NCBI RefSeq assembly: GCF_017348835.2
Contig: NZ_CP071375.1
Source: Escherichia coli
GTDB taxonomy: Bacteria; Pseudomonadota; Gammaproteobacteria; Enterobacterales; Enterobacteriaceae
Reading direction: 5' to 3' (one strand)
Length of the DNA: 64,000 bases
A program made the translations under genes and the position numbers. The notes below the pieces were generated by a model, which was not told the DNA's origin, ran no database searches, and saw only the letters and a list, made by a program, of their open reading frames with translations. Shown here in pieces: positions 61,015 through 63,793 of the stretch (positions are counted from its first letter, which is position 1; each line of letters starts with the position of its first letter).

Positions 61015-61935
61015 ATGCGTTTCCGCCAGTTGTTACCGCTTTTTGGCGCGCTGTTTGCGTTGTATATCATTTGGGGCTCAACCTATTTTGTCATTCGGAT
61101 TGGCGTGGAAAGCTGGCCTCCGTTAATGATGGCGGGCGTTCGATTCCTGGCAGCCGGTATTTTATTGCTGGCATTTTTGCTACTGCGCGGACACAAACTC
61201 CCCCCGCTACGTCCGCTGCTCAATGCCGCGCTGATTGGCCTGTTATTGCTGGCTGTCGGTAATGGCATGGTGACGGTTGCCGAACATCAAAATGTTCCTT
61301 CCGGCATCGCCGCCGTAGTGGTTGCAACCGTGCCTCTCTTTACCCTGTGCTTCAGCCGCCTGTTTGGCATTAAAACGCGCAAACTGGAATGGGTGGGTAT
61401 CGCCATTGGGCTTGCCGGAATCATCATGCTCAATAGCGGTGGAAATTTAAGCGGCAATCCGTGGGGCGCGATTCTGATTTTAATCGGCTCGATTAGCTGG
61501 GCGTTTGGCTCAGTTTATGGCTCGCGCATTACCTTACCTGTAGGGATGATGGCGGGTGCGATTGAGATGCTGGCGGCAGGCGTGGTGTTAATGATCGCGT
61601 CGATGATTGCGGGTGAAAAACTGACGGCGCTCCCTTCCCTTTCAGGCTTCCTTGCGGTCGGCTATCTGGCGCTGTTTGGTTCGATTATCGCCATCAACGC
61701 TTATATGTATTTAATCCGCAACGTCAGTCCGGCTCTCGCCACCAGCTACGCTTACGTTAACCCGGTGGTCGCGGTCTTGCTGGGTACGGGACTGGGCGGA
61801 GAGACGTTGTCGAAGATTGAATGGCTGGCGCTCGGCGTAATTGTCTTCGCGGTGGTACTGGTCACGTTGGGAAAATATCTCTTTCCGGCAAAACCCGTAG
61901 TTGCGCCAGTTATTCAGGACGCATCAAGCGAGTAA
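61015..61935 (+). CDS. yedA: EamA/DMT-family transporter YedA
   Basis: 306-aa membrane ORF matching YedA. Confidence 0.93.
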   Translation: MRFRQLLPLFGALFALYIIWGSTYFVIRIGVESWPPLMMAGVRFLAAGILLLAFLLLRGHKLPPLRPLLNAALIGLLLLAVGNGMVTVAEHQNVPSGIAAVVVATVPLFTLCFSRLFGIKTRKLEWVGIAIGLAGIIMLNSGGNLSGNPWGAILILIGSISWAFGSVYGSRITLPVGMMAGAIEMLAAGVVLMIASMIAGEKLTALPSLSGFLAVGYLALFGSIIAINAYMYLIRNVSPALATSYAYVNPVVAVLLGTGLGGETLSKIEWLALGVIVFAVVLVTLGKYLFPAKPVVAPVIQDASSE

Positions 61936-62394
61936 ATGAATCCCCTGCGTGTCGATCTGCGCGCTGGCACCTTCGCCGCAGATCCACTCTTCCAGACGCT
62001 CGCTAAGCGCTTCATCCGTCAGCTTCTCGCGCCCACGTAACGCGCACTCCCAGACAATCAATACGCGCCAGCCGAGTTCCTGCAAGCGACTGATATCGCG
62101 GCGATCGCGCTCAACATTTTTACCTATCTTCTCCAGCCAGAACTCGGTTCGAGTCGCAGGCACTTTAAACAGATAGCAGTGATGATGATGCCAGAAGCAG
62201 CCATGGGTAAATATCACGCAGCGATATTCATCAACGACAAAATCCGGGCGTCCGGGCAGACTGGCGTCCTGAACGCGAAACGCCAGGCCCTGCCCGGTTA
62301 ACAGACTGGCGAGGCGCTTCTCAATCGCCGTATCACGCGTGGCAATCGCGCGCATATTTTTGCTGCGAGTGGCCTTATCGTGAACGTCGGCCAT
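61924..62394 (-). CDS. vsr: Very-short-patch repair endonuclease Vsr
   Basis: ORF track 61924..62556 is extended; known start [22 protein letters not shown] (156 aa); start lies inside the 3' end of dcm. Confidence 0.95.
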
Positions 62395-63793
62395 GTTGTG
62401 CCTCTTGCTGACGCAACGCCACCGCCTGTTTGATTTTTGGCTCAAGCAGTTTTGCCACCGCGGCAAAGACCGGCACGACCACCGAGTTACCGAACTGGCG
62501 ATAGGCCTGAGTGTCCGAAACCGGAATGCGGAATTTCGCTTCTCCCGGCGCTTCAAAACCCATTAAGCGCGCGCATTCCCGAGGCGTTAACCGACGTGGA
62601 CGATGTTGCTGATTCAGCGGATCGTCAAAGTCTTTCTCACCCGTGGCCATATCCCAGCCGCGATCGATTAAAATTTCCGCGCCATCTTTGTAATAACGCG
62701 CAGACAGCGTACGCGTGACGCTTTGCGGATTGTTCGGATAAACCATTCCATAACCGAAGCCGTTACCGCGCGCCTGATGTTTTTTCGCATATCGATAGAG
62801 GTACTTCCACAGCACCGGCGTCAGGATATATTTCGCCTCGACCATCGGGTCCAACAGCTGCGCCAGCGTCACTCGCTGTGCAGGGAAACATTCGCTGATA
62901 TCACGCAGAGTAAAATCGGCTTTAAGATTCAGATCGCGACGAAAACCCACCAGCACGATGCGTTCACGGTGCTGCGGCAGAAAATGTTTACCATCGATGA
63001 TTTTCGGATCGTCCGGCCCGTTATCTTCTGCATCAGCCACGTCATAGCCCAGTTCGTCCAGCGTCTGCATGATGATGCGGAACGTTTTACCCTGGTCGTG
63101 GCTTTTCAGGTTTTTGACGTTTTCGAGCACAAACATCGCCGGACGACGCGCGTCGATAATGCGCACCACATCAAAGAACAGCGTGCCCTGAGTATCGCAG
63201 GCAAAACCGTGCGCCCGCCCGAGCGAGTTCTTTTTCGATACGCCAGCCAGCGAAAATGGCTGACAAGGGAAACCGGCCAGTAAAACATCGTGTTCAGGAA
63301 TGTGTTGACGAATATGTTCCGCCGCCGCCTCATCACTCACGCCTTCTTTATGGCTGAGGGTGATGTCGCGGATATCTTCATTAAAATGATGCGTCGCCGG
63401 ATCGCAATAATGATTGGCTTTATAAGTGCGTACCGCCTGTTTGTTCCATTCGCTGGTAAACACGCACTGTCCGCCAATCGATTCAAAACCGCGACGGATG
63501 CCGCCAATTCCGGCAAATAGATCGATAAAGCGAAACGCATAATGCGGATGATGTGCCGGTGGTTTGGGTAACAACGTTTGCAGATGGGCGAACTCTTTCT
63601 CACTTAAACGGTGCCATGCCGAGTCATTCGCCAGCGCACGTTTTAAAATTGCCGCGCTCCAGTGATTCTCACCTACACCATTAAGCTGAGCCACCAGCGT
63701 TTTAACATCATAAATTTGCAGCAGTTTCTCCAGCATTGCCTGTGCGGCATTCCCGGTGCTGTATGAATCGGTTACTGATATATTTTCCTGCAT
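62375..63793 (-). CDS. dcm: DNA-cytosine C5-methyltransferase Dcm
   Basis: 472-aa ORF with the catalytic PCQ motif ([11 protein letters not shown]) and ENV motif (FVLENVKNL). Confidence 0.96.

Follow-up and report, generated by a model that had tools for sequence, protein, structure and literature searches.

Does the gene for the mismatch endonuclease Vsr begin inside the gene for the DNA methyltransferase Dcm, and, if so, does the overlap serve to link synthesis of the 2 proteins, or is it a by-product of the way in which the 2 genes have evolved? In Escherichia coli, Dcm methylates the inner C of CCWGG (PMC4924334), and Vsr nicks DNA at the T:G mismatch that derives from deamination, following which a very short patch is resynthesized (PMC2715241; PMC4924334). 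This VSP repair operates mainly in stationary phase (PMC2715241; PMC4924334), and Vsr is stimulated by MutS and MutL (PMC2715241). The 2 genes are co-transcribed as one operon (PMC12907096; PMC4924334), in which dcm partially overlaps vsr (PMC4444293). We have examined this locus in a stretch of 64,000 nt from E. coli, to which we refer as the window, and compared it with its counterparts in K-12, in other complete E. coli genomes and in other Enterobacterales.

Organization of the dcm-vsr junction

A previous reading of the window, made from the sequence only, had placed the vsr start codon about 20 nt inside the 3' end of dcm and in a different frame, with the dcm stop at 62375. We observed that the overlap is exactly 20 nt, that the stop is as described, and that the vsr frame is +1 relative to dcm, (63793-62394) mod 3 being equal to 1. 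The features concerned are as follows.

62375..63793, minus strand: dcm, DNA cytosine-5 methyltransferase, 472 aa (ORF, Pfam, K-12 identity, motifs, PDB 3ME5, RefSeq)
61924..62394, minus strand: vsr, very-short-patch repair T:G mismatch endonuclease, 156 aa (Pfam, PDB 1CW0, K-12 identity)
62375..62394, minus strand: dcm/vsr overlap, 20 nt (sequence reading; annotated likewise in K-12 and Salmonella)
62401..62406, minus strand: Shine-Dalgarno-like AAGAGG for vsr, within dcm, 6 nt to the 5' side of the ATG (sequence reading)
61924..61935, no strand assigned: convergent 3'-end overlap of vsr (minus strand) with yedA (plus strand), 12 nt (ORFs; annotated likewise in K-12 and F2_81)

Read on the minus strand, the vsr ATG occupies 62394..62392 and the dcm TAA occupies 62377..62375. 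The overlapping bases correspond to vsr codons 1-7 (ATG GCC GAC GTT CAC GAT AAG), and in the dcm frame they close the protein with the sequence ...H G R R S R stop. Both the vsr start codon and its Shine-Dalgarno element are located within the dcm ORF, which lies on the same strand but is read in another frame.

Identity of the 2 gene products

Dcm contains Pfam domain PF00145 (DNA_methylase, 2.5e-77) between residues 87 and 448, together with PF18284 (DNA_meth_N), and carries the motifs FAGIGG at 93, PCQ at 176 (which includes Cys177), ENV at 224, QHRER at 274 and GNSV at 435. The Dcm-like structure PDB 3ME5 aligned to the protein over its full length, M.HhaI also matched, and the best PADLOC model was that of an orphan methyltransferase (oMTase PDLC03733, 1070 bits). 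Vsr matched Pfam PF03852 (1.2e-39) with a profile that begins at residue 2, the PADLOC Vsr model (3.5e-112), and PDB 1CW0, the solved E. coli Vsr, which covers residues 2-156 with one difference (6.7e-106). The residues D51, H64, H69, C66/H71/C73/C117 and F67/W68/W86 are all present at the expected positions. On the basis of the Tsutakawa 1999 structures, we take Asp51 and His69 (with His64) to be catalytic, Cys66, His71, Cys73 and Cys117 to be zinc ligands, and Phe67, Trp68 and Trp86 to be intercalating. Since both products are full-length and highly significant members of their families, a chance origin of the overlapping frames is excluded.

Comparison with K-12 and other E. coli

In K-12 MG1655 (b1961/b1960), dcm lies at 2030899..2032317 and vsr at 2030448..2030918, with yedJ upstream and yedA convergent downstream, the same gene lengths (1419 and 471 nt) and an overlap that is likewise 20 nt long and in the +1 frame; over the 90 nt that surround the junction, the 2 sequences agree base for base. 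The 2 strains differ by 18 nt changes in dcm (98.7% identity) and 4 in vsr (99.2%), of which the consequences in protein are H119Q only in Dcm (471/472 aa identical) and T131S only in Vsr (155/156). These differences are strain-level polymorphisms only. That the CCWGG specificity of K-12 Dcm probably holds for the protein of the window is something we infer from this near identity and from PMC4924334.

A 2.3-kb query that spans the module found matches in 5367 of 5426 complete E. coli genomes, with at least 80% of its length matched in 5358, and the annotated features under these matches were always dcm, vsr, yedA and yedJ. The query is 100% identical in DNA to E. coli F2_81, with which the window is collinear (the first 46.6 kb contain 7 mismatches and are followed by one 1-nt indel), and the RefSeq annotation of that strain gives the 2 genes the same coordinates, with the vsr start inside dcm. 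The claim that the locus represents established E. coli biology is borne out by these comparisons: the overlap is real, was correctly read and was already known. We regard it as nearly certain that the pair is an ordinary chromosomal E. coli operon and that it offers nothing new in the window.

Neighbourhood and absence of a restriction endonuclease

The sequence-only reading had further described the module as an orphan methyltransferase paired with a mismatch endonuclease, and as the only restriction-modification (RM)-like element of the window. Upstream of dcm is yedJ (HD phosphohydrolase), whose stop at 63860 leaves a spacer of 66 nt; downstream are yedA, which encodes an EamA transporter, and then yedI, which encodes a DUF808 protein. 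No restriction endonuclease (REase) ORF adjoins dcm-vsr, as judged from the flanking ORFs, Pfam and the F2_81 annotation, and the PADLOC orphan-methyltransferase and Vsr models match the pair. We also found no RM product names elsewhere in the RefSeq annotation of the collinear 64-kb F2_81 region, which is otherwise annotated with flagellar, chemotaxis, transport and housekeeping genes. Both descriptions are in agreement with these observations. The pair is without the partner REase gene that marks a Type II RM system, and Dcm, having no adjacent cognate REase, belongs with the orphan methyltransferases.

Complete RM units with an attached vsr do occur elsewhere. Vsr homologues are found on 200 plasmid records; a Pseudomonas plasmid carries dcm, vsr and a type II REase in abutting or overlapping frames, and on a Gemmobacter plasmid vsr overlaps an MvaI/BcnI-family REase gene by 62 nt. 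Such systems, which include the EcoRII family, resemble the module of the window in combining a C5 methyltransferase with a Vsr-family nicking endonuclease, often in overlapping frames, but they have their own REase and reside on mobile elements, whereas the module described here is REase-less and occupies a conserved chromosomal locus.

It might be argued from these plasmid units that dcm-vsr is a remnant or mimic of an EcoRII-type RM system, with protection from CCWGG-cutting systems, and not housekeeping, as its main role. The second-best PADLOC model for Dcm, a full-length Type II methyltransferase (860 bits), would accord with such an ancestry, as would the ability of Dcm to protect against EcoRII post-segregational killing (PMC4924334). 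We nevertheless consider it improbable, given that neither an REase gene nor an REase pseudogene adjoins the pair, that yedJ and yedA are tight neighbours on the 2 sides, and that the order drpB-yedJ-dcm-vsr-yedA-yedI is syntenic across Enterobacteriaceae, which points to a long-resident core locus and not to a mobile RM system. In any case, this proposal concerns ultimate function and is compatible with the mechanism that we describe later.

Survey of the junction in Enterobacterales

We scanned one genome per species for the Vsr motif HGCFWHHH in the form of a degenerate DNA pattern, which yielded 120 loci, and retained the 77 in which Vsr was at least 55% identical to the protein of the window. 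All 77 are from Enterobacterales, and the locus order given above is mostly kept among them. The junctions were distributed as follows.

34 of 77 loci: overlap of exactly 20 nt, +1 frame (Escherichia, Salmonella, Citrobacter, Enterobacter, Kluyvera, Lelliottia, Trabulsiella, Raoultella terrigena and others)
6 of 77 loci: overlap of 14, 17 or 35 nt, all +1 frame
18 of 77 loci: dcm and vsr adjacent without overlap, gaps of 5-177 nt and one of 1021 nt (Cedecea, Entomohabitans, Shimwellia, Erwinia, Mixta, Serratia, Rahnella, Rouxiella, Dickeya, Xenorhabdus)
15 of 77 loci: no same-strand Dcm-like ORF upstream of vsr
4 of 77 loci: 5' end of vsr lost at the end of the locus

The Salmonella, Citrobacter, Enterobacter, Kluyvera and Raoultella orthologues share the syntenic locus and usually the 20-nt, +1-frame overlap, with a 14-, 17- or 35-nt overlap or a GTG start in a few species. 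They differ from the pair of the window in that the proteins are 72-88% identical and that almost every species has a different C-terminal tail in Dcm.

Of the 15 loci that have no dcm upstream, at least 12 contain enough sequence for this assignment to be certain. The gene immediately before vsr is yedJ in Enterobacter sp. Bisph1, Phytobacter massiliensis and three Kosakonia species; a divergent porin gene is found at a distance of about 450-520 nt from vsr in Pseudescherichia vulneris, Enterobacter sp. ENT03 and Escherichia sp. ESNIH1; in Klebsiella oxytoca vsr is preceded by a 216-aa ORF; and in Pantoea septica dcm is inverted and lies 188 nt from vsr. The vsr-only loci retain the ATG-GCN-GAY-GTN-CAY start, a purine-rich Shine-Dalgarno sequence and GATAAR.

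The vsr start codon

Because the loci that are without an upstream dcm keep both the start and the Shine-Dalgarno sequence, they provide independent confirmation of the annotated vsr start. More broadly, the sequence ATG/GTG-GCN-GAY-GTN-CAY was conserved in about 70 species, including ones that have non-coding DNA or an in-frame stop codon ahead of it. If vsr instead started outside dcm, for example at Met14 (ATG 62355), the 2 genes would be merely adjacent. There is indeed an in-frame ATG at codon 14, and the N-terminal ~20 residues are absent from crystal forms 1VSR and 1ODG. However, residues 1-13 are conserved in protein over about 70 species with synonymous changes in the third codon position, the Pfam profile and the 1CW0 chain both begin at residue 2 as noted above, a conserved Shine-Dalgarno sequence precedes codon 1, and a study of the interaction with MutL handled Vsr from which the first 14 residues had been removed as a mutant (PMC2715241). 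A start at Met14 is, in our estimation, scarcely credible.

In the opposite direction, a 210-aa ORF that opens at TTG 62556 was rejected as vsr. It is a mechanical upstream extension of the vsr frame and lacks conservation; relatives that have only vsr show either an in-frame stop or non-coding DNA ahead of the ATG.

Origin of the overlap

We compared 35 distinct junctions that have the 20-nt overlap, and observed that, at the first, second and third positions of the vsr codons, mean entropy was 0.30, 0.07 and 0.54, respectively. The N-terminus of Vsr is conserved in these junctions as M[AT]DVH[DN]KAT, and a purine-rich GAG/GAGG is conserved at Shine-Dalgarno distance in the 35, whereas the last 12 residues of Dcm exist in 31 versions. 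The TAA that stops dcm comes from vsr codons 6-7 (GAT/AAT AAR). As the variation tracks the vsr frame and the tail of Dcm varies freely, the overlap reads as a derived extension of dcm. Outside Enterobacteriaceae, and in some genera within that family, dcm ends shortly before the vsr ATG. The most economical account, we infer, is that dcm would have been extended secondarily at its 3' end, into a 5' end of vsr that is under constraint.

The same observations could be taken to mean that the overlap is an evolutionary accident with little mechanistic meaning: dcm would have lost its ancestral stop and would read to vsr codons 6-7, and vsr would initiate essentially independently, with only the transcript in common. 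Besides the pattern of variation and the 31 versions of the Dcm tail, this account could draw on the genera in which dcm ends 5-177 nt before the vsr ATG (Cedecea, Entomohabitans and Shimwellia in Enterobacteriaceae, and Erwinia, Serratia, Rahnella, Dickeya and Xenorhabdus), on the retention of the same start and of GATAAR in vsr-only species, on the end of the Pfam methylase domain at residue 448 of the 472 in Dcm, and on a junction RNA structure that is not significant, as described below. In this full form we think it rather unlikely. Thirty-four species from many genera have retained an overlap of exactly 20 nt, which would, however, also follow from conservation of D/N6 and K7 in Vsr, and efficient Vsr synthesis has been reported to need translation of dcm (Dar & Bhagwat 1993, to the extent cited in PMC4444293).

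A more novel reading is that the overlap may be a clade-specific by-product of loss of the dcm stop and of read-through into a strongly conserved vsr 5' end, and not an adaptation for coupling, in which case vsr would have the greater autonomy of the 2 genes and be the more stably kept; it seems to us quite possible, if somewhat short of probable. The suggestion that vsr is the more autonomous partner comes from Kosakonia, Phytobacter, Pseudescherichia vulneris, Klebsiella oxytoca, one Escherichia sp. and two Enterobacter sp., all of which keep vsr and its ribosome binding site without an adjacent same-strand dcm.

Expression of vsr and the question of coupling

A generic sigma-70 scan of positions 61500-64000 gave no site at threshold, neither inside dcm for vsr nor as a promoter of dcm itself. 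The spacer between yedJ and dcm contains 2 elements of possible interest.

63824..63832, minus strand: candidate extended -10 element TGTTAACCT (inferred only, from cross-species conservation)
63803..63821, no strand assigned: perfect 9+9 palindrome CGGCCATCT-c-AGATGGCCG, located after the candidate -10 and before the dcm ATG

A TGnTAAyCT-like motif is kept at the position of TGTTAACCT in the spacers of Escherichia, Salmonella, Citrobacter, Enterobacter, Raoultella and Lelliottia. The palindrome is present in E. coli, degenerate in Salmonella and Citrobacter, and absent from other genera.

By the mechanism established for this operon, one mRNA that starts upstream of dcm would encode both proteins. 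Dcm would act as a solitary SAM-dependent C5 methyltransferase that modifies the inner C of CCWGG via Cys177, and spontaneous deamination of the resulting 5-methylcytosine would produce a T:G mismatch. Vsr, in a zinc- and magnesium-dependent manner, would recognize T:G in CTWGG/CCWGG and nick to the 5' side of the T, after which DNA polymerase I and ligase would replace a very short patch, with stimulation by MutS and MutL. For vsr itself, translation would proceed from AUG 62394 in the +1 frame, from its own AAGAGG Shine-Dalgarno sequence within dcm. Since this AUG lies 20 nt inside dcm, synthesis of Vsr would be tied to transcription of dcm and, by published genetics, to its translation.

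The composition of the window was also examined for a footprint of VSP repair. In a third-order Markov model, O/E was 0.70 for CCWGG and 0.51-0.64 for CTWGG/CCWAG (145 vs 26 sites), values which are too model-dependent, and which come from too small a window (64 kb), to be interpreted.

The previous reading had also held that the 2 genes are translationally linked. The geometry on which this was founded stands, but overlap alone is no proof of coupling, and the link rests on published genetics. According to the work of Dar & Bhagwat (1993), in so far as it is related in PMC4444293, vsr activity is lost as well in the dcm-6 allele, which has a nonsense mutation in codon 45, and efficient synthesis of Vsr needs translation of dcm. 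The dcm-6 effect could be due in part to Rho-dependent polarity instead of coupling. Strict coupling is argued against by the good Shine-Dalgarno sequence of vsr, by relatives that express vsr without an overlap, and by the properties of the junction RNA: in a 120-nt segment, the predicted hairpin that involves the Shine-Dalgarno sequence, the AUG and the dcm stop was matched or exceeded in stability by 31 of 200 shuffled sequences (z = -1.13). RNA structure was rejected as a coupling device on the same grounds, the hairpin being no more stable than shuffled sequence. True translational coupling is plausible, and it is a property that sequence of itself cannot prove.

Implications

The strain carries an intact methylation and repair module, which is relevant to cloning, to methylome work and to C-to-T hotspots at CCWGG. 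For the window itself, confirmation of a textbook locus is of little consequence. What is mildly novel is comparative only and lies outside the window, namely the probably derived overlap, in which selection would act on the vsr frame, and the enterobacterial lineages that have vsr without an adjacent dcm. They bear, to a modest degree, on the origin of overlaps between genes and on what solitary Vsr nucleases do. If vsr is in fact more autonomous than dcm and more stably retained, the question would arise of what a dcm-less Vsr repairs.

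Occurrence of the module

A sequence search of 5426 complete E. coli genomes found no match to the dcm-vsr module in 59 of them, and 9 further genomes carried partial module matches only. B-lineage strains such as BL21 are not known to carry dcm. Elsewhere in the window, we observed a sequence difference at one locus:

Window about 16740-17730, minus strand: araF, intact, 329 aa.

The otherwise near-identical RefSeq genome of E. coli strain F2_81 has one extra G at window position ~17337, where its araF is annotated as frameshifted. The window accordingly represents either a close relative or a corrected assembly and is distinct from the F2_81 record.

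Flanks of the module

Two sequence elements were located in the spacer between yedJ and dcm:

Window 63803-63821: CGGCCATCT-c-AGATGGCCG, a perfect 9+9 palindrome that directly precedes the dcm start.
Window 63824-63832, minus strand: candidate extended -10 promoter of dcm-vsr, TGTTAACCT, which fits TGnTAAyCT.

The TGnTAAyCT motif is conserved at the same spacer position across genera, and a generic promoter scan made no call at this candidate. Between the candidate -10 element and the dcm ATG lies the palindrome, which in our cross-genus comparison was kept in E. coli and was degenerate or missing in other genera; it may represent a 5'-UTR hairpin or a protein-binding site. At the other end of the module, the 3' ends of vsr and yedA meet:

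Window 61924-61935: 12-nt overlap of the 3' ends of vsr and the convergent yedA.

This overlap leaves no room for an intergenic terminator, and therefore each transcript must terminate within the opposite gene.

vsr in other arrangements

At the syntenic locus, to which this statement is confined, several Enterobacteriaceae and Erwiniaceae species have an intact vsr that is preceded by its own Shine-Dalgarno sequence and has no same-strand dcm beside it. The arrangements found, by vsr locus of the one-genome-per-species scan, were as follows:

L009, L040, L057, L109 and L123: yedJ followed by vsr.
L020, L047 and L067: divergent porin and vsr.
L076: a 216-aa ORF followed by vsr.
L107 (Pantoea septica): inverted dcm, divergent from vsr and 188 nt from it.

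Plasmid-borne vsr homologues lie inside complete RM units (Gemmobacter locus L126, 3001-4783; Pseudomonas locus L127, 1739-4690), and there too they overlap their neighbours. On the Gemmobacter plasmid, vsr overlaps an MvaI/BcnI-family REase gene by 62 nt; on the Pseudomonas plasmid, for whose vsr the PLSDB gene table has no entry, the dcm, vsr and REase frames abut.

The dcm/vsr overlap

We compared the overlap at window 62375-62394 with 35 orthologous junctions (L005-L124), and observed that sequence variation within it tracks the vsr frame and that the C-terminal tail of Dcm differs in almost all species. Dcm ends of the Cedecea type read ...AVKKR*, with dcm terminating 10-12 nt upstream of the vsr ATG. 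Given the vsr-frame variation and the species-variable Dcm tail, the overlap looks, at the level of sequence, like a derived extension of dcm through loss of its stop codon.
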